Assembly (NCBI GenBank): GCA_019359235.1
Contig: JAHHHT010000012.1
Coordinates: 195,648-240,019, forward strand
Direction of reading: 5' to 3'
Source of the DNA: Oscillatoria princeps RMCB-10
GTDB lineage: Bacteria; Cyanobacteriota; Cyanobacteriia; Cyanobacteriales; Oscillatoriaceae
DNA: 44,372 nucleotides
Shown here: positions 6,047-44,372 of the stretch, piece after piece
Position numbering within the stretch: position 1 is the first letter of the stretch
How the letters are laid out: each line of letters starts with the position of its first letter
Program-made: the position numbers and the translations under genes
The notes under the pieces: generated by a model
The model's input: only the letters and a program-made list of their open reading frames with translations
What the model was told of the DNA's origin: nothing
Databases searched by the model: none

Positions 6047-6072
6047 TGCGTCTAAATCATTCGTGTAAATTT

Positions 6073-6129
6073 CAGACCCCCGGAAGAGGGCGGGCACGGG
6101 GGCCCGCCCCTACGAAACCGGGGGTCTGG
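6073..6129. repeat. Family-E nested GC-rich hairpin (cagacccccgg...gggcgggcacgggggcccgcccctacgaaaccgggggtctg).
   Basis: Has inner and outer inverted repeats. Related copies are at 24858..24889 and 37066..37099. Confidence 0.6.
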
Positions 6130-6297
6130 GCCAAGAGCGGTTGCGCCAATCATTTAGAACTGCTATATTATAGAAATAATCCCTAGGAAGTGCGGTTGCC
6201 GGTTGAGCCTCGAAGGGGCGAGCTATCAACCAGTAGATGCGCGACGTTGGGGAAAGTTTTAAACCGGCTTTTTGGCTGTATTAACAGGAGTCCCGAC

Positions 6298-6501
6298 ATG
6301 CAGTTTGAACTGTACCAGAGTGTAGCCTTGCGCCGTGACTTGCCACAATCTAACCTGAAAAAGGGGGATGTGGTGACGGTGGTTGACTTCGTTCCTTACC
6401 CGCTCGAAGGTTGTGAGGAGTGCTACATCCTGGAAAGATTTAACGCTGCAGGAGATAGGGAGCTAGTGGCTGTCTCCGGTTCGGATTTGGCAGCGGTGTG
6501 A
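6298..6501 (+). CDS. DUF4926-like small protein (67 aa).
   Basis: Reads MQFELYQSVALRRDLPQSNLKKGDVVTVVDFVPYPLEGCEECYILERF.... An AGGAG Shine-Dalgarno lies 8 bp upstream. The same fold recurs in the N-terminus of the 25026..25409 product. Confidence 0.5.
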   Translation: MQFELYQSVALRRDLPQSNLKKGDVVTVVDFVPYPLEGCEECYILERFNAAGDRELVAVSGSDLAAV

Positions 6502-9645: not shown

Positions 9646-9716
9646 TCAGACACTCCTTTTATCTAAAATCACGTCAGACTGAATCCCCATAATACCAGCA
9701 AACAGCAGAATTCCTC

Positions 9717-9777: not shown

Positions 9778-9824
9778 GGGGCGTACTTCATCCAAGTGCA
9801 AACCGCTATATACCGGCCTGCTTA

Positions 9825-12800
9825 TCAAACGAGCTCAGAAGCTCCCTCAGACTCCCCCTCCCCTGCCTTCGCGGAAGCCGATTTCCCCATCAGCCGCATT
9901 TGAGCCGTCGTGGCGATCGTGTAAAACACCGGCACCACATACAAACTCAAAAACGTCGAGACAAACATCCCCCCAACAACCGACATCCCGATAGACACCC
10001 TCGCCGCCGCACCGGCACCCGTCGCTAGCGCCAGAGGAATCAACCCAAAAATCGTCGAAAAAGCCGTCATCAAAATCGGGCGAAACCGGATTTTCCCCGC
10101 CTCAATCGCCGCCTTGGCAACCGGCATCCCCTTCTCCCGCAGCTGATTTGCAAACTCCACAATCAAAATCGAGTTTTTCGTCGCCAGCCCAATCAGCATA
10201 ATCAGCCCAATCTGGCTGTAGACATTCAAATCCAAACCCGCCAGCAACAGCGCCGCAAACGCGCCCAGCAGCGACAGGGGCACCGCCAGCAAAATAATGA
10301 TCGGGTCGAGATAGCTCTCAAACTGAGCCGCCAAAACCAAGAAAATAAACGCCAGCGCCAGCAGAAAAATAGCGCCCGTCGCTTGTCCCGCCTCTTTAAA
10401 CTCCAGAGACTGCCCCGCATACGATACCCGAATCTCTGCCGGCAGCACCTCCTTCGCTAACCCCTCCAAAGCATCCAGCGCTTGCCCCAACGTATATCCC
10501 GGTGCGGGGCTGCCTTCAATGGCAGCCGCCCGGAAGCGGTTAAAGTGATTGATTTGCGGCGGCGTCGTCGCAGAACTCACCGACACCACATTGCTCAAAG
10601 GAACCACTTGCCCCTGGCTCGTGCGGATATACAGCTGGCGAATATCCTCCGGACTCGCCCGAAATTCTTTTTCAGCTTGAACAACCACCATCAAGCGCCG
10701 GTTGCCCCGGTTGAAACTCGTAATTTTCTGACTTCCCAAAAGGATTTGCAGCGTCCGAGAAATCTCCTGCACCGAAATCCCCAAATTCGCCGCTTGCGCC
10801 CGGTCTACGCTGACAGTCAGCTCCGGTTTATTCAGCTTTAAATTCGTGTCGATATTCACCAACTGCGGCAGCTGCCGCGCCCGACCGGCAAACTCAGCAG
10901 AAACTTGAGCCAGCGTTTCTAAATCGCTGCCTTGCAGCACAAACTGAACCGGCTGCCCGAAACCGCCCCCCGGCAAAGCAGGCGGATTGATTGGCAGCAC
11001 AAAAGCGTCCGTAATTGCGGCAAACCGGCCAAAAAGCTGGCCAATAACCGCTTTTTGCGACTGCTGCGGCTCCTTGCGCTCCTCCCAAGGCTTCAGCCGG
11101 ACAAACGCAAATCCCTGATTCACCTGACCGGGCGCACCCCCACCAAACGCACCAATGGTAAAATAAGTATTAACGTCCTTCACCTGGCTGAGCGTCTGTT
11201 CAATTTCCCCCATCACCTTGTCGGTGTAGTTGATAGTCACCCCTTCCGGTGCCCGCACAATCGTAAAAACAGCCCCCCGATCCTCCGCAGGCAAAAATTC
11301 CAGCGGCAGCTGTTTGAACAGCTGAAACGTCAGCCCCAGCGACACAAAAAACCCCAGAATAACGACCGCCTTTAAAGGCATCAAAATCCGGATAGAGCGG
11401 TCGTAAATCGCCTGCATCACCTTGACGATCCCCTCAAACAATGCCAGAGGCGCACTGAAAAGAGCCGCCAGAGGATTTTTTCTTTCTTCTTTCGCCCACT
11501 CCGGTTTAGCCGGCTTGAGAATGCGGGCGCACATTGCAGGTGCCAGCGTCAGGGCGACAAAGGCAGAGATCAGCACAGAACCGGCAATCGTGATCGCAAA
11601 TTCTGTAAACAGCCGCCCCGTCGTGCCGGCGGAAAACCCCACCGGCACAAACACCGCAATCAGCACCACCGTGGTAGCAATCACCGCAAACACCACCTCA
11701 CCCGTTGCGGCAAAGGTCGCTTGCCTGGGTTTCATGCCCTTTTCTTCGATGTAGCGGATAATATTTTCCAGCACCACGATCGTGTCGTCCACCACCAGCC
11801 CCGTACACAGCGTCAGGGCAAACAGGGTGAGGGTATTAATAGAATACCCCAAAAAGAACATGATGCCAAAGGCACCGATGAGCGAAACGGGAATCGTCAC
11901 GGCTGGAATCAGAGTTGCCCGCCAGTCTCGCACGAAAAAGAAGATAATCAGAATCACCAGAAAAATCGAGAGGTAGAGCGACCCCCAAACCTCCTCAATG
12001 GCCAGCCGGATAAACTCCGAATTGTCCACCGCCAGCTGGTAGCTCATCCCCTCTGGGAACGACTTCGCGAGTTCCGCCATTTTTTCTTTGGCTTGTTTGG
12101 CTACGTCCAGGGTATTGGCATTGGATAGTTTAACCACCCCTAAACCCACTGCCGGTTTGCTATTAAACCGCACGAAAGAGCGCTCGTCTTCCGCGCCAAT
12201 TTCCGCCCGACCGACATCTTTTAACCTCACTTGCGAGCCGTCTGAATTGCGCTTAATCACCAGAGCTTCATATTCCTCCGGATTCTGGAGCCTTCCGAGG
12301 GTTCGCACGGAATATTCCGAGGTTTGCCCTTCAATGATGCCGCTGGGAATCTCGACATTTTCCCGCCGCAGCGCCTGCTCTACATCCAAAACAGTCAGGT
12401 TGCGGGCGGCGAGTTTCACCGGATCGACCCACAGGCGCATGGCATATTTGCGCTCGCCGCCAATAATAACGGTGCTGACGCCCGGAACAGTTTCCAGCGC
12501 GTCTACGATCGACCGGTCCGCGTAGTCGCTCAACTCCAGCGTGGAGAATTTGCTCTCCGGGCTGTAGAGAGCAAACCACACAATCGGAGAGGCGTCGCTC
12601 GATTGCTTGTTGACAATTGGCGCTTCGATCTCGTCGGGAAGTTTGCCCCGCACTCGGTCCACGCGAGAGCGCACGTCTTGCGCCGCTTCCTCAATGGGCC
12701 GGCTCAGTTCAAACTGGACGGTAATCGCACTCACTGACTCCCGACTTTGTGAGGTGAGGGTTTTAATCCCCTCAACCCCATTAATTTCAGCTTCTAATAT

Positions 12801-12992
12801 TTCAGTGACTTCCGTCTCTACAACTTGGGGGTTGGCACCCGGATAAACCGTAGTTACGCTCACCACCGGCGGGTCAATTGTGGGGTATTCCTGCACCGGC
12901 AGCCGGGTGTAACCCACCAGCCCCACCAAGATAATCAGCAGGGAACACACTGATGAGAAGACCGCTCGCTTGATGAAAAAATTGGTGAACAT
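9825..12992 (-). CDS. Multidrug efflux RND transporter permease (HAE1/AcrB family).
   Basis: The protein is 1055 aa with 12 TM segments and two large periplasmic loops. Diagnostic motifs are ...VVLENIIRYIEEKGMKPRQA... and AAARVSIGMSVVGGMF. Confidence 0.9.
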   Translation of the reverse strand: MFTNFFIKRAVFSSVCSLLIILVGLVGYTRLPVQEYPTIDPPVVSVTTVYPGANPQVVETEVTEILEAEINGVEGIKTLTSQSRESVSAITVQFELSRPIEEAAQDVRSRVDRVRGKLPDEIEAPIVNKQSSDASPIVWFALYSPESKFSTLELSDYADRSIVDALETVPGVSTVIIGGERKYAMRLWVDPVKLAARNLTVLDVEQALRRENVEIPSGIIEGQTSEYSVRTLGRLQNPEEYEALVIKRNSDGSQVRLKDVGRAEIGAEDERSFVRFNSKPAVGLGVVKLSNANTLDVAKQAKEKMAELAKSFPEGMSYQLAVDNSEFIRLAIEEVWGSLYLSIFLVILIIFFFVRDWRATLIPAVTIPVSLIGAFGIMFFLGYSINTLTLFALTLCTGLVVDDTIVVLENIIRYIEEKGMKPRQATFAATGEVVFAVIATTVVLIAVFVPVGFSAGTTGRLFTEFAITIAGSVLISAFVALTLAPAMCARILKPAKPEWAKEERKNPLAALFSAPLALFEGIVKVMQAIYDRSIRILMPLKAVVILGFFVSLGLTFQLFKQLPLEFLPAEDRGAVFTIVRAPEGVTINYTDKVMGEIEQTLSQVKDVNTYFTIGAFGGGAPGQVNQGFAFVRLKPWEERKEPQQSQKAVIGQLFGRFAAITDAFVLPINPPALPGGGFGQPVQFVLQGSDLETLAQVSAEFAGRARQLPQLVNIDTNLKLNKPELTVSVDRAQAANLGISVQEISRTLQILLGSQKITSFNRGNRRLMVVVQAEKEFRASPEDIRQLYIRTSQGQVVPLSNVVSVSSATTPPQINHFNRFRAAAIEGSPAPGYTLGQALDALEGLAKEVLPAEIRVSYAGQSLEFKEAGQATGAIFLLALAFIFLVLAAQFESYLDPIIILLAVPLSLLGAFAALLLAGLDLNVYSQIGLIMLIGLATKNSILIVEFANQLREKGMPVAKAAIEAGKIRFRPILMTAFSTIFGLIPLALATGAGAAARVSIGMSVVGGMFVSTFLSLYVVPVFYTIATTAQMRLMGKSASAKAGEGESEGASELV

Positions 12993-13294: not shown

Positions 13295-14932
13295 TCACTT
13301 CTCCCGTGCTCCCTTGCTCCCTTTCCCCTCACCGCTGGGGAGGGGCATAATAGGCGCACCGTCAGCCAGCTTTTGGATGCCGGAAACAATAATAGTGTCA
13401 CCGGGCACAAGTCCTTCGATGACTTCCGCACGATCCCCATTAACCAAGCCCAGTTTCACCGGCTGCCGTTTCGCCACCGCCGGCTCGTCGGGTCCTGGAG
13501 CCACAAACACAAATCGCTCCTGACCTTGGAAAACCACAGCCGTTGCCGGCACCACAGCACTAGAGCGCCGGTTCCAAATCACCTTGGCCCGCACGAACTC
13601 GCCATTCAGCAGCTGCCCTTGGGGATTGTCAAACGCCGCTTTTGCCAGAACCGTTTGCGAGTCAGTCACCGTTGGGGAAATAAAGCTAACCCGACCTGTC
13701 CCCAAGGATTTCCCTTGCGAGTCGCTCAGCTCCACCGGCAGCCCCTCACGCAAATCCGACGCCCGCTCCAAAGGAACCGGCATGCGCAGTTCCAGAAATT
13801 CGTTCTGCGTCACCGTGGTGATCTCGTCCCCTTTTTTGACATAATCTCCCAATTTCACGGGAATATCGCCGATTTTCCCGGCAAAAGGGGCCACTACCGC
13901 CGCCCTTTCCAGCTGGGATTCCGCGTTCCGCACTTGGGCTGCCGCTTGGGCCACTTGCGCTTCCGCTTGCGCGATCTCCTCTGGGCGGGAGCCATTCTGC
14001 AGTTGCAGCAGGGCTTGCCGCTGCTGTTCCACTTCCGCTTTCAGCCGCTCAATGTCGGAAGTCCTGCCCTTTCGCACTTGAGCCAAGCGCCTTTCGGCTT
14101 CTTGCAACTGGGCGGCGGCGCTGCGGTCTTCTTTTATATATTGATCCAGCGTGTCCTGAGCAATCGCCCCCTGCTGCGCCAATTCCCCATACCGGCTCAC
14201 CCGCTGCTTGGTGAGTTCTGCAGCGGCTTTTGCCGACTCCAATCGCGCTTCAGCTTGAGCGATCTCTTCCGGTGCCGCCCCAGCTTGCGCATCGGCGAGG
14301 CGGGTTTCCGCTGCGGCTAAACTGGCTTTGGCTCTGGCAATTTCCTCCGGGCGGCTGCCGGCTTGCAGCTCTTTGAGCCTAGCTTCGGCACCGAGCTGGT
14401 TCGCCTTGGCTTGGCGGAGCTCGGCTTGCAGGGAGTCGCTCTCTATGCGAGCCACCGAGGTCCCTTTTGCCACCTGCGAGCCGGATTTGACATAGATTTC
14501 CCTGACTAAACCGTCGATTTCTGCCTTCAGCCCCACTGACTTCTGGGCCTCTAGGGTGCCGACAAACTCCGAGGACTCTTCCACAGGGGCGAGCGCCACT
14601 CGCGCTAGCTTCACCGGCACTCCGCGAGGTTTGCTCAGGGCTGCCGGTGGGCCGCCCGCCGCCCCCTGGCTGCGCGACTGCCACCACTGCCAGCCGAAAA
14701 CCCCACCTCCTGCCAGCAGCAGCAGCCCCACCGCCATCAGCGCAGGCAGCAGCAGCGATCCGGATTTTGGTGGCGGCTGTTCTGCCGGCGGCTCATCTGG
14801 CTCGTATTCCCCCGCATCCTCTGGAGAGAGGACGTAGCCGGTCTTTACATCATCCTGAATGCGAGCCGGTTTCTCCTCGGCTTCAGCTAACCCCTCAGGG
14901 TTCTTAACATGATTGGTTTTCGTCATCAGCAA
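13295..14932 (-). CDS. RND efflux periplasmic adaptor subunit (HlyD family).
   Basis: The protein is 545 aa, with a TM anchor LLLPALMAVGLLLLAGGGVFGW, a coiled-coil hairpin and a beta-barrel. It lies upstream of the pump on the same strand. Confidence 0.85.
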   Translation of the reverse strand: MLMTKTNHVKNPEGLAEAEEKPARIQDDVKTGYVLSPEDAGEYEPDEPPAEQPPPKSGSLLLPALMAVGLLLLAGGGVFGWQWWQSRSQGAAGGPPAALSKPRGVPVKLARVALAPVEESSEFVGTLEAQKSVGLKAEIDGLVREIYVKSGSQVAKGTSVARIESDSLQAELRQAKANQLGAEARLKELQAGSRPEEIARAKASLAAAETRLADAQAGAAPEEIAQAEARLESAKAAAELTKQRVSRYGELAQQGAIAQDTLDQYIKEDRSAAAQLQEAERRLAQVRKGRTSDIERLKAEVEQQRQALLQLQNGSRPEEIAQAEAQVAQAAAQVRNAESQLERAAVVAPFAGKIGDIPVKLGDYVKKGDEITTVTQNEFLELRMPVPLERASDLREGLPVELSDSQGKSLGTGRVSFISPTVTDSQTVLAKAAFDNPQGQLLNGEFVRAKVIWNRRSSAVVPATAVVFQGQERFVFVAPGPDEPAVAKRQPVKLGLVNGDRAEVIEGLVPGDTIIVSGIQKLADGAPIMPLPSGEGKGSKGAREK

Positions 14933-15769: not shown

Positions 15770-17137
15770 ATGCTTAAGAGTTTAGATGCCCCCCCTCCAG
15801 TCATGACTCTAAGGATTTGCCGCCTAGTAGCGTTCGCCGGCTTGCTGGCAGCAGCCTCTGGTTGCGGCTGGCTGCCCAAGGAAGCCGCTGACGCCCAAAC
15901 CCGCGCCCCCAGGGCGGAAAGGCCCGCCGCTGCAACGCCGGTCGATGTTGCCATCGCCCGCACCGGCTCGGTGAGCGAGCCGCTGGAGTCCACCGGCACC
16001 ACCCTCCCCGTGCGGGAAGTCTCCCTGCGCCCCCAAGTCGAGGGCAAGCTGCTGGAACTCAACGCCGATGTGGGGGACACCGTACAGAAAGGCCAAGTCC
16101 TCGCCCGACTGGACGACGCCTTGCAGATGAGTGCCGTCGTCGGGGCGGAAGCCGAACTCGCCGCCCGCAAGTCCGAGGTGGCGCGTGCTGAGGCCGAAGT
16201 GAGCAACGCTCGCACCAAAGTCGAAGAGGCGAGACTGCAACTGCAGCAAGCGCAAGCAGACGCCAACCGGCTCGAACAGCTGTTCAAAGAAGGAGCGATT
16301 TCAGCCCAAGCAGCAGAACAGGAGCGGACAGCGGCGCGAACAGCCGAGCAGGCTCTGCGCTCCGCCCAAACGCAAGTTGCCACACAGCAGCAAGCCGTCG
16401 CAGCGGCGCAGGGGCGCGTCGTCGCCCAGCAAGCCATCCTCGCCCAAGTGCGAGAGCGACTCTCCTACTCCGTCTTAACCTCCCCGATCGCCGGCACCGT
16501 GCTCCAGCGCGTCACCGAACCGGGCAATCTCGTGCAGCCCGGGAGCGAACTCCTTAAACTAGGCGACTTCAGCGAGGTGAAAGTCGCCGCCGATATCTCG
16601 GAACTGGAACTGAGCAACATCCGGGTGGGGCAAAGGGTGGGAGTCAAGCTAGACGCCTATCCGCAAGAAAGCTTCACCGGCGAGGTGACGCGCATTTCCC
16701 CCGCCGCCGATCCGCAAGCTCGCCTCGTGCCGGTGGAAGTCACCATTTCCAACAGCAGCGGCAAAATTGGCAGCGGCTTGCTGGCGCGAGTCAGCTTTTC
16801 CTCACGCCAAGCTCAGCGCGTGCTCGTGCCGGTGGCGGCGCTGGAAGCCGGTGGAAGAGGCAGAGGCGGCGCTGGGGGACAGGGCAGCAAAGGCGCAGGG
16901 GAGCCGAAAGGCAGGGGTGCGGGGGAGCAAAGGAGCAGTGAGGGGGTTGTGTTTGTGGTGAGTGGCGAGGGGAAGGAGGTCAAGGTTTCCGCTCGCAGCG
17001 TTCAGCTTGGCGAACGCGCCAACGGGCAGGTCGAAATCCTGTCGGGATTGAATGCGGGAGAGCGATTCGTCGCCCGCGCCGGCAAACCCCTGAAAGACGG
17101 CGACGCCGTTAGCTTAAGTATTCTGTCGGAAAAGTAG
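15770..17137 (+). CDS. RND efflux periplasmic adaptor subunit, a lipoprotein of the HlyD family.
   Basis: Signal peptide with a lipobox (LLAAASGC), a coiled coil and a beta-barrel. A Gly/Lys-rich insert (GGRGRGGAGGQGSKGAGEPKGRGAGEQ) lies near the C-terminus. Confidence 0.85.
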   Translation: MLKSLDAPPPVMTLRICRLVAFAGLLAAASGCGWLPKEAADAQTRAPRAERPAAATPVDVAIARTGSVSEPLESTGTTLPVREVSLRPQVEGKLLELNADVGDTVQKGQVLARLDDALQMSAVVGAEAELAARKSEVARAEAEVSNARTKVEEARLQLQQAQADANRLEQLFKEGAISAQAAEQERTAARTAEQALRSAQTQVATQQQAVAAAQGRVVAQQAILAQVRERLSYSVLTSPIAGTVLQRVTEPGNLVQPGSELLKLGDFSEVKVAADISELELSNIRVGQRVGVKLDAYPQESFTGEVTRISPAADPQARLVPVEVTISNSSGKIGSGLLARVSFSSRQAQRVLVPVAALEAGGRGRGGAGGQGSKGAGEPKGRGAGEQRSSEGVVFVVSGEGKEVKVSARSVQLGERANGQVEILSGLNAGERFVARAGKPLKDGDAVSLSILSEK

Positions 17138-19705: not shown

Positions 19706-22700
19706 ATGTCAGGATTTAGCGTCAGCGCAACTGCCATCCGCCAGCACATCGGCACCCTCATGCTCACCCTAACAGTAGTAGTGGTGGGGGTTTTCTTCCT
19801 CTCCCAGCTGCAGGTGGATTTATTGCCTAGCATCACCTACCCCCGGATTGGGGTGCGCCTCAGCGCCCCCGGCGTCTCCCCAGAAGTGGGAGTCGAGGAA
19901 ATTACCAAACCCCTGGAAGAAGCCTTCTCCGCCACAGAGGGAGTGGTGCAGATTTTTTCCCAAACCCGCGAGGGACAAATCAGTTTAGATTTGTTCTTCC
20001 AGCCGGGGGGCGATATTGAGCAAGCGCTCAACGACGCCACCGCTTCCTTTAACCGCGCCCGAGGGCGGCTCCCAGACACCATCGAACAGCCGCGCCTGTT
20101 TAAATTTGACCCCTCCCAGCAGCCGGTCTACGAATTTGCCCTCACTTCCCCCGGATTGCGGGATGTGGATTTGCGCGTGTTTGCCGATCAGCAACTGTCG
20201 CGGGAACTGGGCGTGGTTCCCGGCGTCGCGGGAGTCGATGTTGCCGGCGGGGTGAGAGAAGAAGTCAGGGTTTTGCTTGACCTCGACCGGCAGCAAGCTT
20301 TAGGAGTCGGCTTGAGGGATGTGCTCGACACTCTGAGAACCCGCAACCAGGACATTTCTGGCGGGCGCATCCTGGGGGAAAATTCCGAACCGCTAACCCG
20401 CACTGTGGGCAGGTTTAAAAATGCCGGTGAAATTAACACCCTGTCTTTTGATGCCGGGTCTTCAACCTCCAGCCGGCGCGTCTACCTGCGAGACTTTGCC
20501 GAAGTGATTGACGGCACCGAAGACCAGCGGGTTTTCGTTTCTCTCAACGGAGAGCCGGCAGTAAAAGTCAGCATCCAAAAGCAGCCAGACGCTAATACCA
20601 TCACCGTTGTGGACGGGGTTAAAAAACGCCTGGAAGAGCTGCGGGAGTCTGGCTTGATTCCGGAGGAAATGATTTTAATCCCGACCCTGGATGAGTCCCG
20701 CTTCATCCGCAACTCTCTCTCCGATGTGATTAATTCTGGCATTTCTGGAGCTTTGCTGGCTGCAGTGGCGGTGCTGTTCTTTTTGGGTTCGCTCCGCCAA
20801 ACTTTTATTATATCACTGACCATTCCCCTGTGCACACTTGCGGCGCTGATTTTAATGAAGCTGTTGGGCTTGTCCCTGAATTTGTTCAGTCTCGCCGGCC
20901 TAGCTTTGGGGATTGGTCAAGCCATCGACACCAGCGTCGTCATCTTGGAAAATATTGCCGTTGGCGTCAGCACCAATCCGGCAATCACCAGGCGGCGGAA
21001 AAAGAACGCACGCCAGATAATTGAAGAGGCTATCTCGCGGGGGAAAGAGGTAGAATCGTCCATGATTGCCTCCACCGGCGCGAACCTGATATCCGTGCTG
21101 CCATTTCTCCTGGTAGGCGGCTTTTTTTCGCTGCTGTTCAGCGAGTTAATTCTCACCATTTGCTTTGCCGTAGCCGCCTCACTTTTGGTGGCGCTGACTG
21201 TGACGCCGGTGCTGATGTCTCGCCTGCTGGGAATTTCCTGGTCGAGTCGCATCAGTGAGTTCTGGCTGCTGAAACAGTTTAACGCCCGGTTTGAGGACGC
21301 TAAACGCGCCTACGCTGGGGCTTTGAGTTGGGCGCTGCGCTACCGGCTGCTCGTGATAGCGCTCGCCTTCTTGGTGCTCGGCGGCGGCAGCTTGCAGCTC
21401 GCCGGTCAAATTCCCCAAGAAATTCTCCCCCGCATCAACACCGGCCAAGCTAATTTAGTCGCGCAGTTCCCTCCCGGAACGCCTCTGGAAACCAACCGCA
21501 AAGTCATGGGCATTGTCGATGAAATTCTCCGCAATCAGCCAGAAACAGACTATGTTTTTACCACTGCCGGCGGGTTTCTTTTCGGCAGCAACACCACTTC
21601 CAACGCCCTGCGGGCTTCTAGCACAATTACCCTGAAGCCAGGAACTGACGTTCAGGATTTTGTGCAGCGTGCGAGCGCGGAGTTTGACAAGCTGAACTTG
21701 GCTGGAATTCGCTTGCGGCTCAATCCGGGTCAGCTGCGCGGGATTATCCTGACCAACTCGCCGGTGCGGGGGGCTGATGTTGATATTATCCTCCAGGGGG
21801 ATGACGAGCAAAAACTGCGTCAGGCGGGGCGTCAGATACTGGCGGCGCTGGATGAGGGCGTGACGCAGGCGCGGTTTCGACCGGATGCTGATGACCGGCA
21901 GCCAGAAGTGCAAATTCATCCGGAATGGGAGCGTCTGGCGGCTTTTGGGCTGACGGCGCAAGATATTGGCGACACCATTCAGACGGCAATTCAAGGTTCT
22001 GTCCCGACTCAGCTGCAGCGGGGCGAGCGCTTAGTAGACGTGCGGGTGCAGCTCGCTCAGGAGTCGGTGCGCCGCCCTTCGCAGCTAGCACAAATTCCTT
22101 TATTTGTCAATGGCAACCGGCAAATTCGTTTGAGCGATGTGGCGGAAATTAAGGAAGGACAAGCGCCGGGGGAAATTCAGCGAATTAACCAGCGCAACAG
22201 TGTCCTGATTGCCGGCAGTTTGAACAAGGGGGCGACCCTGAGTGATGCGCTGGCGCAAGTGAATAAGGTGCTTGCCGGTGTGGAATTGCCCGAAGGGGTG
22301 ACGGTGCTGCCTTCTTCAGCCGGTCAGACGAATCAGGAATTGCAGAATTCTCTGAAAACTTTGGGGGGACTTTCGGCGTTTTTGGTATTTGTGGTAATGG
22401 CGGTGCAGTACAATTCTCTGCTCGACCCGCTGGCGATTATGTTCACGGTTCCGCTAGCGCTTGCCGGCGGGATTTTGGGGCTTTACGTCACTCAGACCGC
22501 CATCGGCGCAACAGTGCTCGTGGGTGCGGTGCTGCTGGTGGGTATTGTGGTGAATATCGGGATTATCATGGTGGAGCAGGCTAACCAAATTCGGGAAGAG
22601 GAAGGTGTTAGCCGGCAGGCGGCGATCTTGAAAGCCGCTCCCCAGCGGTTGCGCCCGATTATGATGACAACCATCACCACAGTTTTGGGGCTGTTTCCCC

Positions 22701-22945
22701 TGGCGCTGGGAATTGGGGAAGGTGCAGAATTTATGCAGCCCTTGGGGGTGGTGGTGTTTTCGGGGATGTCTGTATCGACGCTCCTGACGCTGTTTATTAT
22801 TCCCTGTCTGTACACTTTGCTGCACGACTTTCCCGCGCTATTTCGCGTGAGGAAGTTGAAGAAGTTGAAGGTGCCGGTGGCTGTTTCTGATGAGATTCCT
22901 GAGATTTCTCCTGAGATTCCTGAGATTCCTGTCGGGAAGAAATAG
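19706..22945 (+). CDS. Efflux RND transporter permease (AcrB/HAE family).
   Basis: The protein is 1079 aa with 12 TM segments and two large periplasmic loops. The C-terminal tail carries KLKKLK and EIPEISPEIPEIP repeats. Confidence 0.9.
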   Translation: MSGFSVSATAIRQHIGTLMLTLTVVVVGVFFLSQLQVDLLPSITYPRIGVRLSAPGVSPEVGVEEITKPLEEAFSATEGVVQIFSQTREGQISLDLFFQPGGDIEQALNDATASFNRARGRLPDTIEQPRLFKFDPSQQPVYEFALTSPGLRDVDLRVFADQQLSRELGVVPGVAGVDVAGGVREEVRVLLDLDRQQALGVGLRDVLDTLRTRNQDISGGRILGENSEPLTRTVGRFKNAGEINTLSFDAGSSTSSRRVYLRDFAEVIDGTEDQRVFVSLNGEPAVKVSIQKQPDANTITVVDGVKKRLEELRESGLIPEEMILIPTLDESRFIRNSLSDVINSGISGALLAAVAVLFFLGSLRQTFIISLTIPLCTLAALILMKLLGLSLNLFSLAGLALGIGQAIDTSVVILENIAVGVSTNPAITRRRKKNARQIIEEAISRGKEVESSMIASTGANLISVLPFLLVGGFFSLLFSELILTICFAVAASLLVALTVTPVLMSRLLGISWSSRISEFWLLKQFNARFEDAKRAYAGALSWALRYRLLVIALAFLVLGGGSLQLAGQIPQEILPRINTGQANLVAQFPPGTPLETNRKVMGIVDEILRNQPETDYVFTTAGGFLFGSNTTSNALRASSTITLKPGTDVQDFVQRASAEFDKLNLAGIRLRLNPGQLRGIILTNSPVRGADVDIILQGDDEQKLRQAGRQILAALDEGVTQARFRPDADDRQPEVQIHPEWERLAAFGLTAQDIGDTIQTAIQGSVPTQLQRGERLVDVRVQLAQESVRRPSQLAQIPLFVNGNRQIRLSDVAEIKEGQAPGEIQRINQRNSVLIAGSLNKGATLSDALAQVNKVLAGVELPEGVTVLPSSAGQTNQELQNSLKTLGGLSAFLVFVVMAVQYNSLLDPLAIMFTVPLALAGGILGLYVTQTAIGATVLVGAVLLVGIVVNIGIIMVEQANQIREEEGVSRQAAILKAAPQRLRPIMMTTITTVLGLFPLALGIGEGAEFMQPLGVVVFSGMSVSTLLTLFIIPCLYTLLHDFPALFRVRKLKKLKVPVAVSDEIPEISPEIPEIPVGKK

Positions 22946-37215: not shown

Positions 37216-37983
37216 AAATTGCTCTGTCTGGTTTTTCCGCCGCAAGGAAAACCGGCCAATAATTTGCACGTCCAGTTCGTACTGTTCAGCAAGTCCGCGA
37301 CGCTCTATCGCCCGCCGGCTCGCCACAGCCGACCAATTGATTAAATCGATTTGCCGGCGGGTCAAATTCGAGTCATGTATGCGATAATAGTAGAGGGCTT
37401 TATCCAGGTGCCTGATTTGGGTTATCTCTGAAAGTCGCAAGCACAAATCATAATCTTCCGCCAGTTCCATTGAGGGGTCAATCCCACCGGCAGCCAAGTA
37501 GGCATCCGTCCGCATCAATCGGAAGTGGAATGTCATGAAGTCAATCAGCAGCCGGTTTTTGGAATAGGGAATTTGGCTGCGCTGTCCGATTCCTTTGACA
37601 TTGCCAAACGCATCGATGACGAGATAGTCGGTGTAGACGAGTCCCACTTTTGGGTTGGCATCCAGAAAACCGGCAGTTTCTTCAAGTGCTGTGGGCTCTA
37701 GCAAATCGTCACTATCTACCCAGCCGGTGTGAGTTCCAGAACACATGGCGTGAGCCGCTTTGAGAGCCGGCGCTCGCCCTTGATGGGGGGCAGCAATTAT
37801 TTTCACTCGTTCGTCTAGTTTAGCATAATTGCCGGCAATATCTAAAGAACTGTCGGTGGAGCCGTCATCCCACACCAGAAGCTCGAAGTCTTTTCTCGTC
37901 TGCGCCAAGACACTTTCTATCGCAGCGCCCAGGTAGCGCTCTCGATTGTAGACCGTCATTATTAGGGAAATTGTGGCTGTCAT
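37213..37983 (-). CDS. Family 2 glycosyltransferase.
   Basis: Reads MTATISLIMTVYNRERYLGAAIESVLAQTRKDFELLVWDDGSTDSS...GWVDSDDLL, carrying the DxD motifs and the GT-A fold. The listed ORF extends to 38055, but the likely start is the Met at ~37983. Confidence 0.8.
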   Translation of the reverse strand: MTATISLIMTVYNRERYLGAAIESVLAQTRKDFELLVWDDGSTDSSLDIAGNYAKLDERVKIIAAPHQGRAPALKAAHAMCSGTHTGWVDSDDLLEPTALEETAGFLDANPKVGLVYTDYLVIDAFGNVKGIGQRSQIPYSKNRLLIDFMTFHFRLMRTDAYLAAGGIDPSMELAEDYDLCLRLSEITQIRHLDKALYYYRIHDSNLTRRQIDLINWSAVASRRAIERRGLAEQYELDVQIIGRFSLRRKNQTEQF

Positions 37984-38060
37984 GGGGGGTGAGAGAGGTT
38001 TTGGCTTGAAAAAATTGGGGTGTACTCTGGCGTTGCATATTCCTGAACCCGGCACCCCAA

Positions 38061-38136
38061 CCCCTCCCCGCGTGCGGGGAGGGGGAGAAAGAGATGGAGT
38101 TTCTCCAAACAGGTTTGTAGTAGGGCTTTAGCCCAA
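38061..38136. repeat. Family-F hairpin (cccctccccgcgtgcggggaggggg, 38061..38085) plus a single family-G unit (gtttgtagtagggctttagcccaa, 38113..38136).
   Basis: Inverted repeat plus one unit of the 27-bp tandem family. Both sit exactly at the point where the PAP2-like reading frame loses its homology. Confidence 0.65.
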
Positions 38137-39517
38137 CCGGCACTCCTCGCAAGACGGGTCGCCAGAAATCGTAGGCGTATTTGGCGTCCCAAGCGACAAT
38201 GCCGGCGTCTGCTAGGGCGATATTTAGCAGGGCGAACATGCGGGCGTCTTCTAACAGGGTGCTGCCACTTTTTAAGGAGGCTTGTTGGGCAATTTGGTTC
38301 CAGTGTCCGGGCGGGGTGTAGGTGCCGGCACCGTCCGCCCAGAAGAGAGCGATTTCTGTCCCTTCAGGGGTGCGGGCGCTGCTGTTTTTTTCGCCCAATT
38401 CTTTGACTTGATTGAACTCTATGGTATAATCAGAACTGGTGAGGGGAGGGAGTCCGCTTGGGCGAAATTGGGAGTCGCTTGTGATGGCAAAGGGGGCGAG
38501 ATTCGCCCACTGGGGGAGGAGTGCCGGTTGAAAACCGGGAGGTGTGGGAATCCAATTGCCGGCACTGGGTTGTGGGGTGTAGGGCACTTTGGTTGCGGAA
38601 CCATCCGCACTTCTGGCGGCTAAAATTTGAGCGGCTGCGATTTGCCCTATGGTGACGCCATCTGTTTCGGATTTGCTGTCGGGAATTGCTGCGAGAGAGT
38701 CGGTGAGTGCGGTGTCGAAGATGGCGGATTGGTTGGGGTATAAATTGATGAGAGTGCGGTGCGCTGCTGTGGCTGCGGCGGCTTCTGGGTCGGCGTTTGG
38801 CGGCGCTTCTAGGTTGGCTTTGTATAGAGTGCCGGTTTTGGCGATTGCCGTGACGGCATCGTATATTGCTGTGTGGAGTATGGCTAAGTTTCTTGCGGCT
38901 AAGGGGGGTGCTGTTTTGTCTGTTTGGATGGCGTTTAATGCTGTCTGGTTCCAGTCAATGATGGGGTTGGTGGGGTCTGCGGAAAGGAAGCGGTTGAGTT
39001 GCCGGTCGAATTTGAAGGCGGGTGAACAGCTTCGCCCTTCTGCTATGCCGTGGGTTTGGAGGTGCTGTAATGCTAGATTTCGGCTGCCGGTGCAAGCTTG
39101 ATTGACATCGGGGTTGTTGGATAAATAGTAGTCTAAACTGACGTAAGGCGAGAAAGCGCGTCCCTCTGCGATGCCGAATGTTTGCAGGTGTTTGAAGAGT
39201 TGCTCGCTGTCGAATCCGGCTAAGTCTGGGTGGCTGGCGCGATAGAAGTTTAGGTCTATTAAGGGGGAGAATTGCCGGTTTTATGCTAGGCCAAATTGTT
39301 CTAAGTGGTTGAAGAGTTGCTCGTTTGTTAAGCCGGCTATGTCGGGGTTTTTGGCGCGGTAGTAGTTGAGGTCGGCATTGGGGGAGAATTGCCGGTTTTC
39401 GGATAAGCCCTTGGTTTGGAAGTGCTGGAGTAATTGTTGGGGGGTGGTTATGCCGGCGGCTGTCAGGTCGGGGTTGCCGGTGGCGTAGAAATCGGGGTCA
39501 AATAGTTGGACGGACAT
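38110..39517 (-). pseudogene. Vanadium-dependent haloperoxidase / PAP2-superfamily-like gene with an N-terminal array of ~38-aa repeats. It is inactivated by an in-frame TAA and truncated at the 3' end.
   Basis: ORFs 39281..39517 and 37865..38587 share one frame and are separated only by a TAA near 39281. In other repeat copies that position is GAA (..GLSENRQFSP vs ..GLA*NRQFSP). Four repeats of the type DPDFYxxxNPDLAxAGxxxxQLxxHxQxxGxxEGRxFSP precede TPPGHWNQIAQQ...ALLNIALADAGIVAWDAKYAYDFWRPV, which contains the PAP2 motif 1 (K-x6-RP). After RPV the frame runs into the family-G repeat and the GT2 gene. The expected PSGH and SRxxxxxHxxxD motifs are absent. Confidence 0.55.
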
Positions 39518-39693: not shown

Positions 39694-40293
39694 TCAGCCT
39701 AAGTCAATAAGACTTTTCCCGTCGTTGGTAAACGAGTTGCGGAGCCGTGACAAAAATTCTCTATCCAGTGTCTTGGCATTTCTCAAGTTCTCCAAGTCTT
39801 CGCGTTGCTTGGCTAGTTCTCTGAGCGTCCAAGGGTGATTTACCATCTCCTTCACAAGCCTTTGAAATATGTCGTCAGGCAGCGTATTATCACTGAAGTA
39901 ATATTCCGAATAAAGAGCTAAGTGAAGGGTTCTCAAAGCACAATTGACTACCTTGATAATACAACTCTTTGAAGGCTCGAGACATGCATCTAAAGTGTAA
40001 ATAATTGCTATAGCTGCTTCCTGCGCCTCCCCGTCGTATCTGGAGCCGGGGAAATCCTCTAAGTTGGGCATTACATCCTGACAATCATCTCTTAATTGGC
40101 GGATTCTTGCCGCATCCACTGGTTTTCCTTGCAAAATTTGCCAAATTTCATCCAGCGCCGTCTGTAACATAGAAAGATTTCCCCAATTTTCCGTCCGATA
40201 AAAAGCGGCATAGTTGGGAAGCATCCTCTCACAAATAGAAGCGGCAAACGCAATTATGTGAGGGTTTGGCAGTGCCTCTATTCCAGTTTCCAA
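39694..40293 (-). CDS. Candidate immunity or accessory protein of the RHS toxin (199 aa, soluble).
   Basis: Begins 3 nt after the RHS stop codon with a TTG start. It has no TM segment or known domain. Its position is typical of cognate immunity genes for polymorphic toxins. Confidence 0.35.
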   Translation of the reverse strand: METGIEALPNPHIIAFAASICERMLPNYAAFYRTENWGNLSMLQTALDEIWQILQGKPVDAARIRQLRDDCQDVMPNLEDFPGSRYDGEAQEAAIAIIYTLDACLEPSKSCIIKVVNCALRTLHLALYSEYYFSDNTLPDDIFQRLVKEMVNHPWTLRELAKQREDLENLRNAKTLDREFLSRLRNSFTNDGKSLIDLG

Positions 40294-40298
40294 GTCAT

Positions 40299-43028
40299 CT
40301 AATCTGAGAGGATACTCGAAAGGATTTTTAGTGGAAAAGTGTCAACAAACGGATTTAAGCTTTCAGAATTGAGAGAGCGATTTATCTGGTCTAAAGCATA
40401 CAATATCCCTATTCCTGCAAAAGCGATAGCAGCAACAGGTATTACTGCAAGCGGAATCGCAAACTCCCCTGATGGGTCTGTGTCATTAGTAGGACTATTC
40501 CCCACATACCGGTACAGATTAACATCCCCACCGGCAAACCCAATCGGGTCCTCACTAATAAATCTTCCTACCCCAGCATCATAATAGCGCGCCCGGTAGA
40601 AAGAAAGCCCCGTCTCCTCATCCAACTCCCGCCCCGTATAACCAAAGCGGAAGTCCAAATTCGGATTCGTCTCACCCGTTACCTTCCCAAAGCTATCATA
40701 CCTGAGGTGATTTTGTAAAGCCCCCGCCTCATTAACCAAATCCCGCACTGTCCCCTGGTTATCTGTCAGCGCCCACAGCACCTGGCCCGAAGCACTTTCA
40801 TCCGCCAAAATCTGGTCAAGCACCGGCCCGTGCAAATAGCGGTGAGTCTGGTTCCCACTCCCATCAAACGTCAGAGCAATGTGCTCCCCGTCATAGACAA
40901 AACGCTCCACTGATAGCCCAACCGGCCCCCCTCCATCCCCATCTATCTCCTTCCCAATCCGCCGGTCAAAAACATCGTAAACATACTCAACTGACTTAAT
41001 TATATCACCCCTGCTATTTTTAGTCACAGCTGCAATCAAACGGTTGCGGTAATCCCAGCTGTACTCTGTTACCTCACCCGTAGCAATCTTAACCCGCTTA
41101 GTCCGGTTCCCTTCAGCGTCATACTCGTAATTGTAAACTCCATCTGACTGCAGCTGGTTATTCGCCAGAGTCTGGTATCCCGTATTGGTGCGGTTGCCAT
41201 TGCCGTCATAACTATAAGCCTCATCATTTTGGTAACTGTGGTCTGTCCCCGTCACCTGGTTGCGGTCGTCGTAGCTGTAGCTGCTGCTGCCATCGCCAGA
41301 AGTAAACTGAGTAATCCGCGTTGCCGCATCGTAACTCCAATTATAATTCGCAAAAGTCGCCGTCCCTTTGCCATGAATTAATTGAGTCAGCCGGCCCGCA
41401 CTGTCATAAGTATAGCCGGTAGTCGCCACCTGTTGCGTCCCCGCCAAATCGCTGTAGCGAGAGACACCCGTCATCTGGCTAGCAGCATCATAGGCCATGT
41501 CCACTCGCTTGTTCGCAACCCCATTGCCGCTTTGAGTAATTCGAGTAACGCGGTTGAGGGCATCGTAAGTGAAAAATTCACTCCCCTTTACCTGACCATT
41601 AATTGTATCACTAACCGACAGCAAATTGTTGGGACTATCATAAGTGTAGTTCAGCAGAACATTCGGCGCAAAAGGCGTCCCCGCATTACTCACCGCAGTC
41701 ACGCGACCGGCACCATCGTAAGTGTAGTCGTAAGTAGAGTCGGGGTCGCTGACAATATCGAGCTGGTCCGCCGCATCATAAGTATAAGTAATTGTGCGGG
41801 CGGGATTGACACCGGCATCCAGCCACTGTTCAGAAGAAAGCCTGTTAAGTTCATCATAAACAAACTTGCAGACGCGATTATTGCGGTCAGAAGCTGTCAC
41901 CTGGTTGCCGGCGGCATCATAAGTGTAGGCACGCTTTAGCCCCAGCTGATTAGTTGACTCAATCAGCCGGTCTAACTCATCGTAAATAAACGCCGTAGTG
42001 TTCAGTCCTGGGTCAGTGACAGAAAGGACATTGCCGACAGCATCATAAGTTGTTGCCGTCGTTTGGTTGAGAGCGTCCGTAAACGCAATTTGGCGATTTA
42101 GAGGGTCGTAATTATAGCGAGTGACGTGCCCCAAAGCATCCGTAACCGCAATCGTATTGCCATTGGCATCATATTCTGTCCCAATCGTCTGACCCAGAGG
42201 ATCTCTGACAGCAGAAAGCCAGTTGCGACTGTTATAAGTGTACTCAGTAGTGCGCCCCAGTTCATCAGTGACAGCAATCAGATTGCCTATCGCATCATAC
42301 TTGGCAGCCGTTGTTTTCAAAAGCGCATCAATCGTGCCGGTGCGCCGGTTTAGCCTATCATAGACATACTGAGTTTTCCGTCCCAGCGCATCAGTCACTG
42401 ACAGCTGGTTGCTGGCGGCATCATACGTGTAGGCAGTGGTGTGCGAGAGGGGATCTGTAACACTCTTGCGGCGATTGCGGGCGTCGTAAATAAAGGAAGT
42501 CGTGCGGGTCAGTTCATCGGTAATAGCAGTCAGATTGCCGGCACCGTCATAATCAAACGCAGTAATACCATTCTTAGCATCGGTGATTTGGGTTTGCCGG
42601 TTGCGACTGTCATATGCGTGCAGAGTGGTTCGCCCGAGTTGGTCAGTTTCAGCAATAACATTGCCGGCGGCATCGTAACTCGTGGTAAAAACGCCATTTA
42701 AGGCATCGATTTCCTGAATCAGCCGGCCTAAATCGTCATACTCGTACTCAGTCCTGTGCCCGTTAGCATCTACTTGGGCAACCATTTGATTCGCCGCATC
42801 GTACTCAAAAGCCGTCGCCTTCCCCAGCGGGTCAATCTGCCGAATCAACCGACCGCGAGCGTCGAAAACCCTGTTATTTCGGTTCCCATTCGCATCGAAA
42901 GTAGAACTGACATTATTGTCGAAATCATACCGCATCTTATCCCGCGACCCATCGGGATTGACCGTCTCAATCAGACGATTCCGACTGTCATTCATACTCA
43001 TACTCCGTCCGATTGCCATTCTCATCAA
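40299..43028 (-). CDS. RHS/YD-repeat protein, the C-terminal ~909-aa part of a frameshifted polymorphic toxin gene.
   Basis: Dozens of YD repeats (xxGxxxxYxYDxxGRL). The RHS core ends YRARYYDAGVGRFISEDPIGFAGGDVNLYRYVGNSPTNDTDPSGE, which is the DPxG[L] cleavage/boundary motif. The C-terminal tip is only ~54 aa and hydrophobic (FAIPLAVIPVAAIAFAGIGILYAL...). Confidence 0.85.
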   Translation of the reverse strand: MMRMAIGRSMSMNDSRNRLIETVNPDGSRDKMRYDFDNNVSSTFDANGNRNNRVFDARGRLIRQIDPLGKATAFEYDAANQMVAQVDANGHRTEYEYDDLGRLIQEIDALNGVFTTSYDAAGNVIAETDQLGRTTLHAYDSRNRQTQITDAKNGITAFDYDGAGNLTAITDELTRTTSFIYDARNRRKSVTDPLSHTTAYTYDAASNQLSVTDALGRKTQYVYDRLNRRTGTIDALLKTTAAKYDAIGNLIAVTDELGRTTEYTYNSRNWLSAVRDPLGQTIGTEYDANGNTIAVTDALGHVTRYNYDPLNRQIAFTDALNQTTATTYDAVGNVLSVTDPGLNTTAFIYDELDRLIESTNQLGLKRAYTYDAAGNQVTASDRNNRVCKFVYDELNRLSSEQWLDAGVNPARTITYTYDAADQLDIVSDPDSTYDYTYDGAGRVTAVSNAGTPFAPNVLLNYTYDSPNNLLSVSDTINGQVKGSEFFTYDALNRVTRITQSGNGVANKRVDMAYDAASQMTGVSRYSDLAGTQQVATTGYTYDSAGRLTQLIHGKGTATFANYNWSYDAATRITQFTSGDGSSSYSYDDRNQVTGTDHSYQNDEAYSYDGNGNRTNTGYQTLANNQLQSDGVYNYEYDAEGNRTKRVKIATGEVTEYSWDYRNRLIAAVTKNSRGDIIKSVEYVYDVFDRRIGKEIDGDGGGPVGLSVERFVYDGEHIALTFDGSGNQTHRYLHGPVLDQILADESASGQVLWALTDNQGTVRDLVNEAGALQNHLRYDSFGKVTGETNPNLDFRFGYTGRELDEETGLSFYRARYYDAGVGRFISEDPIGFAGGDVNLYRYVGNSPTNDTDPSGEFAIPLAVIPVAAIAFAGIGILYALDQINRSLNSESLNPFVDTFPLKILSSILSD

Positions 43029-44372
43029 TCATAGCAGTCTGATTGCCGGCATCGTCATACTCCATCCGCTGCGCCGCCTCATCCGGAGTCCCTAAAGCAA
43101 AAGTCGTTTTAACCAGCCGGTTCATGGCATCGTACTCATACTCCGTCCGATTGCCATTCTCATCAATCATAGCCGTTTGATTGCCGGCAGCGTCATACTC
43201 CATCCGCTGCGACGCCTCATCCGGAGTCCCCTTCGCAAAAGTCACCTCAACAAGCCGGCCAAAATTATCATAATCGTAATCCGTCAACCGCCCCAGAGGG
43301 TCAGTCTCAGTATCAATCAGATTCTTGCTAGTATACGTGTAGCGAGTGATAACATCATCCCCACCGCCAACAGAACCCACCACGCGAGTTTCAGACAGCG
43401 TATTCCCAGTCAGCGTGTCAATTTCATAAAGCGTCTGCCGGCCTAACTCATCCGTCACACTCGTCACCTGATTGAAAATCGGGTCGTAAGTATAACTGCG
43501 CTTCCCAGTTCCCCCACCCCCCACAGAATTAGTCGTATTCAGCCTGACAGAAACATTATTGCTGAAACTGTTCCCCGTCACCAAATCCCTGTCGCCATCA
43601 AAATCCAGATCCGCCAGCGCCACAGATGCCGGCTGCGAACCGACAGCCACATCATTTCCGGCTACAAAAGAGCCATCTCCCTGACCCAAAAGCACCGATA
43701 CTTTGCTGTCAGAACGATTCGCGATAACAATATCTTTCTTGCTGTCCCCGTCAGCGTCTCCTACAGCTACTGCGACAGGTTCAGACCCTACCGTATAATC
43801 AGTCTGCACTCCAAAAGTTCCATTCCCAGAACCCAACCGCACTGACACCTTATTGGTAAAACGATTTGCCCCAATAAGATCCGAGTCGCCATCACTGTCT
43901 AAATCTGACAGGATCGCTGCGGAAATCCCAACCCCAAATGCCACCTGACTCCCAGCAGCAAAAGAGCCAGATCCATCCCCCAACAGCACCGACAAGCGGT
44001 CAGAATTGCTATTGGCGCTAACAATGTCAAAGTCGCCATCCCCATCCACATCTCCTATCGCCACTCCCACCGGAAAATACCCAACCGAGTAATCAGTTTC
44101 AGGCGCAAAAGTGCCATCTCCATTCCCCAGTCGAACTGACACGCGGTTCAAGGCGGCGCTAGTCGTAACCATGTCTAGATTCCCATCGCCATTCAAATCC
44201 TCTAAAGCCACAAAGTCAGACCCAACCGCCACCTCGTAGTCAGTAACAGTAAAATTGCCCTCGCCATCCCCCAATAAAACTGAGTAATAGTCCTTATCCA
44301 AACCATAACCCATGCCCCCAGCGGTGACAATATCGGAGTTTCCATCCCCGTTTACGTCTCCCGTTGCTACCG
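42988..44372 (-). CDS. N-terminal part of the same RHS protein, with FG-GAP/VCBS-type repeats then the first YD repeats. It continues beyond the 3' edge of the window.
   Basis: Repeats such as DGDGDFDIVSANSNSDRLSVLLGDGSGSF recur about 6 times, followed by YTYDPIFNQVTSVTDELGRQT. The frame is open upstream to the window end. It is separated from the 40299..43028 frame by a single extra base near 43000: ..TEYEYE* against expected ..TEYEYDDSRNRLIETV. Confidence 0.8.
   Translation of the reverse strand, partial: VATGDVNGDGNSDIVTAGGMGYGLDKDYYSVLLGDGEGNFTVTDYEVAVGSDFVALEDLNGDGNLDMVTTSAALNRVSVRLGNGDGTFAPETDYSVGYFPVGVAIGDVDGDGDFDIVSANSNSDRLSVLLGDGSGSFAAGSQVAFGVGISAAILSDLDSDGDSDLIGANRFTNKVSVRLGSGNGTFGVQTDYTVGSEPVAVAVGDADGDSKKDIVIANRSDSKVSVLLGQGDGSFVAGNDVAVGSQPASVALADLDFDGDRDLVTGNSFSNNVSVRLNTTNSVGGGGTGKRSYTYDPIFNQVTSVTDELGRQTLYEIDTLTGNTLSETRVVGSVGGGDDVITRYTYTSKNLIDTETDPLGRLTDYDYDNFGRLVEVTFAKGTPDEASQRMEYDAAGNQTAMIDENGNRTEYEYDAMNRLVKTTFALGTPDEAAQRMEYDDAGNQTAMIDENGNRTEYEYE
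43000..43250. repeat. Tandem duplication of ~120 bp inside the RHS gene, giving two near-identical copies of a YD-repeat segment.
   Basis: 43000..43125 and 43128..43250 differ at only a few positions. Both encode (A)MIDENGNRTEYEYDAMNRLVKTTFA(K/L)GTPDEA(S/A)QRMEYD(A/D)AGNQT. Confidence 0.8.

Follow-up and report, generated by a model that had tools for sequence, protein, structure and literature searches.

The 44,372-nucleotide stretch of the Oscillatoria princeps RMCB-10 contig JAHHHT010000012.1 analyzed here (positions 195,648 to 240,019, hereafter the window) ends in an RHS polymorphic-toxin locus with an unusually short C-terminal tip and a small gene placed almost immediately behind it. 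This arrangement raises the question of whether the tip is a small toxin accompanied by its immunity gene or the remnant of a larger toxin. The data favor the second answer with a probability of about 0.75: the locus would be a recently inactivated RHS polymorphic-toxin gene followed by an orphaned, 5′-truncated immunity gene. Two deletions relative to related loci, of 146 and 699 bp, carry this interpretation. The features of the locus are the following:

42991..44372, minus strand: upstream part of the RHS pseudogene, with FG-GAP repeats and then the first YD repeats, the frame being open to the window end
42992..43285, minus strand: tandem repeat with a 138-bp in-frame period (46 codons, about 2 copies), within the YD array
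42988..42996, minus strand: deletion junction 1, the frameshift site, placed by pairwise alignments between 42992 and 42991
40467..42991, minus strand: downstream part of the RHS pseudogene, a YD-repeat shell closing in the RHS-associated core
40332..40463, minus strand: pre-toxin segment of 44 aa, a hydrophobic helix and then NPFVDTFP, the sole remnant of the C-terminal toxin region
40299..40331, minus strand: ten-codon tail LKILSSILSD and stop, the DUF416 5′ coding region in the wrong frame
39694..40332, minus strand: DUF416/YjaG gene, a putative immunity gene, without ATG and with codons 3-14 of the native N-terminus kept

An interrupted RHS gene followed by a DUF416 gene

The list of open reading frames (ORFs) contains an upstream ORF at 42988..44313 on the minus strand, its frame open to the window end, which overlaps a second one at 40299..43028. 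The upstream ORF matched the Pfam families FG-GAP_3 (E=5.5e-35) and FG-GAP, followed by RHS_repeat (E=2.6e-24), and the downstream ORF showed 17 RHS_repeat stretches (Pfam E=1.5e-106; TIGR01643 E=5e-77) and the RHS-associated core TIGR03696 (E=3.9e-23, residues 777-854), located at 40467..40700. The core terminates in DPIGFAGG..DPSGE, a boundary that is readable directly in the sequence (DPIGFAGGDVNLYRYVGNSPTNDTDPSGE), and the DPxG-(about 20 aa)-DPxG autoproteolysis motif is present at the junction of shell and toxin region. The ORF list and the Pfam and TIGR03696 matches bear out the first-pass annotation in that both ORFs are one interrupted RHS polymorphic-toxin gene, in which FG-GAP repeats precede YD repeats. 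The window copy has the YD shell and the core, and lacks both an uninterrupted frame and a C-terminal toxin domain. Its shell carries zero stop codons across 2520 nt and shows a ratio of nonsynonymous to synonymous substitution rates (dN/dS) of 0.19-0.23 in comparison with relatives; the inactivation is therefore recent. On the strand opposite to the YD repeats, an ORF of 185 aa (window 41382..41939, plus strand), kept at positions 5768..6325 (minus strand) of a related locus (L001, below), is most likely a by-product of the codon pattern of the repeats and not a gene.

The RHS frame runs for 54 codons after the core (DPSGE) to a TAG at 40299-40301. The first usable start codon of the downstream gene, a TTG at 40293, had been noticed before, although it lies 5 nt and not 3 nt past this stop; it is in a different frame and opens a 199-aa ORF. 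The product had been described as having no recognizable domain, but it matches Pfam PF04222 (DUF416) at E=5e-27, its score of 95.1 bits exceeding the cut-off of 23.7, with residues 5-196 aligning to profile positions 6-185 of 188. Sequence matches were also obtained to the DUF416 crystal structures 2Q9R (Shewanella baltica) and 3F7C (Marinobacter), and the AlphaFold2 model of the product (pLDDT 91.5), compared by Foldseek, predicts the all-helical DUF416 fold (TM 0.81 and E=8e-8 to 2Q9R; TM 0.73 to 3F7C). Likeness to the DUF416/YjaG family, which includes E. coli yjaG, is thus one of sequence match and predicted fold. An exact-match look-up of this product, and of that of a neighboring glycosyltransferase gene, returned no entry. 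To our knowledge, no function has been assigned to DUF416/YjaG, although two crystal structures are available and E. coli has a member of the family.

The closest homologs of the 199-aa protein are found in filamentous cyanobacteria, are 205-214 aa long and have the N-terminus MAENPFEYPLRLDDLE. Close homologs open with MAENPFEYPLRLDD-LE, and this native start is absent from the window copy which, unlike other DUF416/YjaG members, is without the first 14 codons. The sequence ..NPFEYPLRLDD is encoded in the DUF416 frame just 5′ of the TTG, and no ATG, GTG or TTG precedes position 40293. A scan of the minus strand upstream of the gene gave no promoter-like site, counts being not above those of shuffled sequences.

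Related loci carry a deaminase domain that is missing from the window

The locus was compared with two reference loci, one of O. princeps RMCB-10 (L001) and one of Oscillatoria sp. PCC 10802 (L004), both of them syntenic and orthologous to the window at 92-95% DNA identity; the upstream part of the RHS gene is 94% identical at the nucleotide level to L001 3190-4569 and L004 5073-6456. Past DPSGE, L004 continues with the hydrophobic helix and NPFVDTFP, a Pro-rich linker, a deaminase-fold domain of ~110 aa, 18 nt and the ATG of DUF416. L001 carries a core repeat of 620 bp; there, the main gene and an orphan module share helix and linker but differ in the C-terminal domain that comes next. The domains that follow helix and linker in these two modules and in L004 range from 130 to about 230 aa. 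The deaminase domain is present in both orthologs.

Compared with L004 (9265-9963), the window lacks 699 bp, and about 2.6 kb in comparison with the more complex O. princeps locus. The junction, mapped against L001 and L004 at about 40331/40332, fuses ..NPFVDTFP to codon 2-3 of DUF416, so that linker, deaminase, spacer and DUF416 ATG were lost together. A search of the window in six frames did not find the deaminase domain (hmmsearch --max, best E 0.64), and no other toxin domain was found in any frame, only the 44-aa stub and the 10 out-of-frame residues. This agrees with the second option of the first-pass annotation, loss or displacement of the tip. On the contrary, the tight coupling of the downstream gene, which had been taken for a native feature, was created by the same deletion that took the ATG.

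The lost domain shows the hallmarks of cytidine-deaminase-like enzymes, that is, HxE and PCxxC motifs on a deaminase fold, in the relatives and is absent from the window. In its alignment HAE and PCxxC are invariant or near-invariant, and the top four PDB matches of the toxin profile are all deaminases (best 1VQ2, E=0.006). Pfam gave sub-threshold matches only (dCMP_cyt_deam_1, E=0.038; OTT_1508_deam, E=0.0016; XOO_2897-deam, E=0.036), and NCBIfam gave zero matches. The clade is rare: 21 clusters were found among 1.84 billion representatives, and a word-indexed protein search with the toxin profile recovered 4 proteins only.

Two side observations concern the reference loci themselves. The L001 RHS ortholog is split elsewhere, at ~4040 (equivalent to window position 43522), where its run of G has one base fewer than those of the window and L004, which reflects either an independent inactivation or a homopolymer sequencing error of the L001 assembly. 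The otherwise intact RHS-deaminase copy of L004 (~9750-9760) reads HAQ, the other 11 aligned members reading HAE.

DUF416 is associated with the deaminase domain across three phyla

The relation between the two genes was surveyed in 82 DUF416 loci (L001-L082). The deaminase domain occurs in 18 of them. In every case it shares the strand of DUF416, its end lies 27-115 nt ahead of the aligned DUF416 start, and it occurs at no other place in the locus. Their hosts are cyanobacteria, Thiobacillus denitrificans and a Thermoanaerobaculia metagenome-assembled genome, that is, three phyla, and the deaminase tips are either RHS-borne or located on other carriers. This recurrent position just upstream, on the same strand, indicates that DUF416 is probably the cognate immunity protein of the adjacent deaminase, which it would bind and inhibit; the deaminase itself would be toxic. 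The reciprocal search gave the same picture, since a DUF416 gene begins 10 nt behind the gene of a metagenomic protein retrieved solely with the toxin profile (L084). In addition, toxin identities vary in step with those of DUF416 (Mantel r=0.76, p=2e-4, 13 pairs), several genomes have 2-4 DUF416 copies or tandem copies, and DUF416 is intact where the toxin is frameshifted (L001) or replaced (L002, L003). In contrast with the single gene yjaG of E. coli, cyanobacterial DUF416 genes are multi-copy and patchily distributed, and many lie 3′ of toxin domains. The pattern, as judged from gene order and alignments, is the standard signature of a putative toxin-immunity module. With somewhat more reserve, we also favor the view that at least the cyanobacterial DUF416 proteins would serve as dedicated immunity proteins against RHS-delivered deaminase toxins that form a small clade not classified before.

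Several related loci show exchange of the toxin part. L002 (Logan SRR27480576 contig, 425-1727) holds the closest relative of the window DUF416 gene (96% nucleotide identity), and an SLT (lytic transglycosylase) tip (Pfam E=8.7e-8) and a hydrophobic ORF of 145 aa have taken the place of its deaminase, as in textbook toxin displacement. In L003, a second locus of PCC 10802 (8345-9796), a 484-aa ORF with an internal repeat, ..VWD[IV][IL]EPWQATYWKTLPRAYRVRY.., present twice, is flanked by an RHS core fragment and an orphan DUF416 gene. In both L002 and L003, DUF416 still has the final ~80 nt of the deaminase gene beside it. Furthermore, L008 (Nostoc, 9020-9943) and L009 (Plectonema radiosum, 1549-4250) share a common non-RHS carrier with different tips, the former with an HAE deaminase followed by DUF416 and the latter with a CAE..C-x-x-C tip (read by eye), a 162-aa ORF and an orphan DUF416, a sign that cassettes are shuffled on a second delivery scaffold.

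A number of observations weigh against the interpretation of the locus as a toxin gene in decay beside its orphaned immunity gene. The deaminase is present in only 22% of the sampled DUF416 loci, 64 of the 82 being without it, and the upstream neighbors in 50 other loci are heterogeneous, with Imm11 in three and otherwise housekeeping or miscellaneous genes. The gammaproteobacterial YjaG has a conserved non-toxin context, nfi-yjaG-hupA. The DUF416 dN/dS values are 0.43-1.16 for all pairs, intact ones included, which fits a fast-evolving immunity gene and, equally well, weak constraint. The Mantel result cannot separate co-evolution from simple co-inheritance. The reference toxin of PCC 10802 may itself be inactive, its catalytic glutamate being apparently replaced. 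Finally, neither reads nor a second assembly of the strain were found, so that an assembly error at either junction is possible.

Some of these points would be explained if the RHS gene had decayed as proposed while DUF416 were a conserved neighbor with another role, its adjacency to the deaminase being incidental or linked to a chaperone or repair function. The 64 loci without deaminase, the mutually unrelated upstream genes in 50 of them, the single-copy E. coli yjaG between nfi and hupA, and the fixed position of DUF416 at the locus end while upstream modules vary would all be expected. We nevertheless consider it unlikely, in view of the strict order, common strand and 27-115 nt gap directly 3′ of the toxin in 18 loci of three phyla with different delivery domains, the recovery of the pairing by reciprocal search, the multiple or tandem DUF416 copies within genomes and the co-variation of both partners. 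Moreover, the three orphan DUF416 copies next to Imm11 adjoin immunity genes, and the deaminase 3′ remnant kept with DUF416 in L002 and L003 is a classic footprint of toxin displacement.

In E. coli K-12 (NC_000913.3, 4198790-4200553; L083), yjaG follows nfi at a distance of 43 bp and precedes hupA. The product of nfi is endonuclease V, an enzyme that cleaves at deaminated bases. The gene order hints that the wider DUF416 family could also deal with base deamination.

A 146-bp deletion accounts for the frameshift

Exactly at the frameshift, the window lacks 146 bp that are present in both L001 and L004, and this gap is the sole frame-breaking indel in about 4040 bases aligned with them. The 3.1 kb downstream contain in-frame indels only, and the whole flanking alignment of ~7.2 kb shows just two indels, both in frame. 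The missing 146 bp encode regular in-frame YD repeats (..VMNQMVRMVEADPDGSGPQSAPVTSYTYDQSGNQVLVVDPLGRKTESRYD) in both relatives; the window state is therefore derived. Each breakpoint coincides with a TATGA (Tyr-Asp) pentamer, and the junction carries a 4-nt duplication (ATGA): had exactly 150 bp between the pentamers been deleted, the frame would have been kept, but the window has four extra bases (ATGA). The upstream frame consequently stops just beyond the junction, at the TGA 42988-42990. The sequence text that had been given for this site, GAGTATGAATGACAGT, is present at 42996..42985, and dropping one A does restore the frame, reading EYEYDDSRNRL, but the supposed extra base is the scar of the 146-bp deletion.

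The tandem duplication reported at this place abuts the frameshift, adjoining the stop of the upstream ORF, with a period of 138 bp rather than about 120 bp (Tandem Repeats Finder: 42995..43243, 1.8 copies, 92% matches, score 442; alternatively 42992..43285 at 83%). Both copies also occur in O. princeps (L001) and PCC 10802 (L004); the duplication is therefore old and not the cause of the frameshift. The slippage or recombination within it suggested by the first-pass annotation does not hold, since the lost 146 bp are unique sequence beside the ancestral repeat. In the orthologous RHS genes the duplication is conserved; the short tip is not, its pre-toxin segment being followed there by larger toxin domains.

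Two other explanations of the frameshift were discarded. Programmed frameshifting at TATGAATGA was rejected given the lack of conservation, the relatives being 146 bases longer there. An insertion of the 146 bp in the relatives was rejected as well, the segment consisting of regular in-frame YD repeats in two lineages.

The apparent decay could also reflect the data rather than the genome, one or both deletions being assembly or sequencing artefacts and the true genome having an intact RHS-deaminase-DUF416 operon. Junction 1 does adjoin the 138-bp tandem repeat, repeated RHS modules such as the core repeat of L001 confuse assemblers, and reads and an independent assembly are lacking. We regard this explanation as improbable: collapse of the repeat would remove 138 bp and not 146 bp of unique sequence, and junction 2 joins unique sequences with a homology of 1-2 nt or less. 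Furthermore, the flanking alignment has no other frame-breaking indel, other long genes of the window are intact, including two AcrB genes of >1000 aa in full length, and an independent nonsense substitution in a neighboring gene (see below) fits real local decay. An exact search for both deletion junctions in the metagenome contigs of the Joint Genome Institute (JGI) found none.

It might likewise be argued that the YD array is legitimately 147 bp (49 codons) shorter in frame and that the frameshift is a separate single-A insertion or base-calling error, as 147 is a multiple of 3 and the frame is restored by removing one A. This has little probability, since two independent events would be needed at one nucleotide, whereas a single imprecise deletion between the TATGA pentamers, with its 4-nt junctional duplication, explains both, and no other 1-nt indels occur in the 7 kb compared.

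The 54-aa tip as a deletion scar

The length and hydrophobicity of the tip are as first described, residues 1-24 reaching a Kyte-Doolittle 19-residue mean of up to 2.44. Since the helix precedes other C-terminal domains in the relatives, residues 1-44 represent a conserved pre-toxin segment; it is identical in L004 and differs by one conservative L/V change (SESL vs SESV) from the main and orphan modules of L001. The remaining residues and the stop, LKILSSILSD*, are also obtained when the 5′ end of the intact DUF416 genes of L002 and L003 is read in an alternative frame. When the last 130 aa of the RHS ORF were used as query in a 5.8-billion-sequence search, no protein shared the tip, the matches being to the RHS core at <=80% identity only. 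From these comparisons, the tip is to be read as a deletion scar and not as a small toxin. That it would instead be a functional short membrane-active toxin, with the translationally coupled 199-aa protein as its immunity, as the transmembrane-like helix of residues 1-24 and the ORF opening 5 nt past the stop may suggest, is very improbable, given that the RHS gene is frameshifted upstream, that the 44 residues precede two different, larger toxin domains in relatives and the last 10 are out-of-frame DUF416, that the junction removed the start codon of the downstream gene, that the partner of DUF416 elsewhere is a deaminase and not a membrane peptide, and that the tip is unique in the search.

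Proposed history of the locus

The proposed decay of an RHS toxin gene would start from an ancestor similar to PCC 10802, in which a multi-kb RHS protein with an FG-GAP/Ig-like N-terminal region, a YD shell and a DPxG..DPxG core would have carried a C-terminal cargo composed of a hydrophobic pre-toxin helix, a Pro-rich linker and a deaminase-fold toxin of roughly 110 aa with HxE and PCxxC zinc motifs. After an 18-nt spacer, the DUF416 gene would have encoded the product that neutralizes the deaminase. In one event, 146 bp were lost in the YD array between two Tyr-Asp codon pairs, shifting the frame, and in another the loss of 699 bp fused the pre-toxin stub to the out-of-frame DUF416 5′ end. 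With the frameshift and the deletion of the deaminase, the RHS gene of the window is therefore unable to deliver the toxin. The orphan DUF416 gene may still be expressed and, if translated from the TTG at 40293, its product would offer protection only against deaminase tips of related strains.

Neighboring genes

The gene adjoining the RHS locus is apparently a second decaying gene of this neighborhood:

37865..39517, minus strand: haloperoxidase-like gene, 550 aa (VCPO_2nd/DUF6851 in O. princeps)

This gene shows an in-frame TAA at 39281-39283 where the ortholog has GAA (codon 79), and no indels. Further upstream in the window, two full-length AcrB-type resistance-nodulation-division (RND) transporters and three HlyD-type adaptor genes were observed (2324..4393, 9825..12992, 13295..14932, 15770..17137 and 19706..22945), with no evident link to the RHS locus.

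Comparison with known toxin-immunity systems

The locus shares the YD shell and the DPxG..DPxG core with the Rhs/YD-repeat systems, such as enterobacterial Rhs, Pseudomonas protegens RhsA and the Tc-toxin TcC (PMC3482391). Its relatives also have the variable C-terminal toxin with the immunity gene directly 3′ (Zhang et al. 2012, PMC3482391), and the orphan core-toxin modules and recombinational toxin displacement of those systems are seen here in L001, L002 and L003. Unlike them, the window copy is a frameshifted pseudogene whose toxin domain is gone, its N-terminal region is FG-GAP/Ig-like and not PAAR/VgrG-linked, and the host is a filamentous cyanobacterium.

The domain of the relatives has the fold and the HxE and PCxxC motifs of the deaminase toxins DddA-DddI (Burkholderia cenocepacia), SsdA-SsdAI (Pseudomonas syringae) and DddB/BaDTF3 (Iyer et al. 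2011, PMC3239186; de Moraes et al. 2021, PMC7901873) and, as in those systems, it lies at the C-terminus of a polymorphic toxin with a small immunity gene adjoining. On the other hand, it is only 8-16% identical to the structures of those toxins, reaches no Pfam or NCBIfam deaminase family at threshold, and has DUF416 as its partner, unlike them. Retention of an immunity gene next to a toxin that is deleted, frameshifted or replaced (window, L001, L002, L003) is also known from the orphan immunity genes of Rhs and type VI secretion system (T6SS) effector-immunity systems (PMC10539506); in contrast to these, the window deletion also took the start codon, which makes expression uncertain.

Neither the main text of Iyer et al. 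2011 (PMC3239186) nor one supplementary text file of Zhang et al. 2012 (PMC3482391) mentions DUF416. In the searchable literature, no paper was found with 'DUF416' as a whole word, the prefix matching DUF416x families only, and the matches to 'YjaG' were irrelevant. Within that literature, the DUF416-deaminase pairing appears to be unreported.

The locus itself represents ordinary polymorphic-toxin decay, and it calls for caution before a short C-terminal stub is declared a new mini-toxin. The comparison offers a testable function for DUF416/YjaG, namely immunity to deaminase toxins, and draws attention to a rare deaminase-fold toxin clade that the present models of Pfam and NCBIfam overlook. 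Since base editors were developed from DddA-type enzymes, new deaminase toxins are of practical value, and an inhibitor family would be a matching tool. For filamentous cyanobacteria, in which RHS systems are little studied, the locus adds a case of interbacterial-weapon turnover and, if the interpretation is true, the window would represent one stage in the life cycle of a toxin module, with the toxin deleted and the antidote kept.

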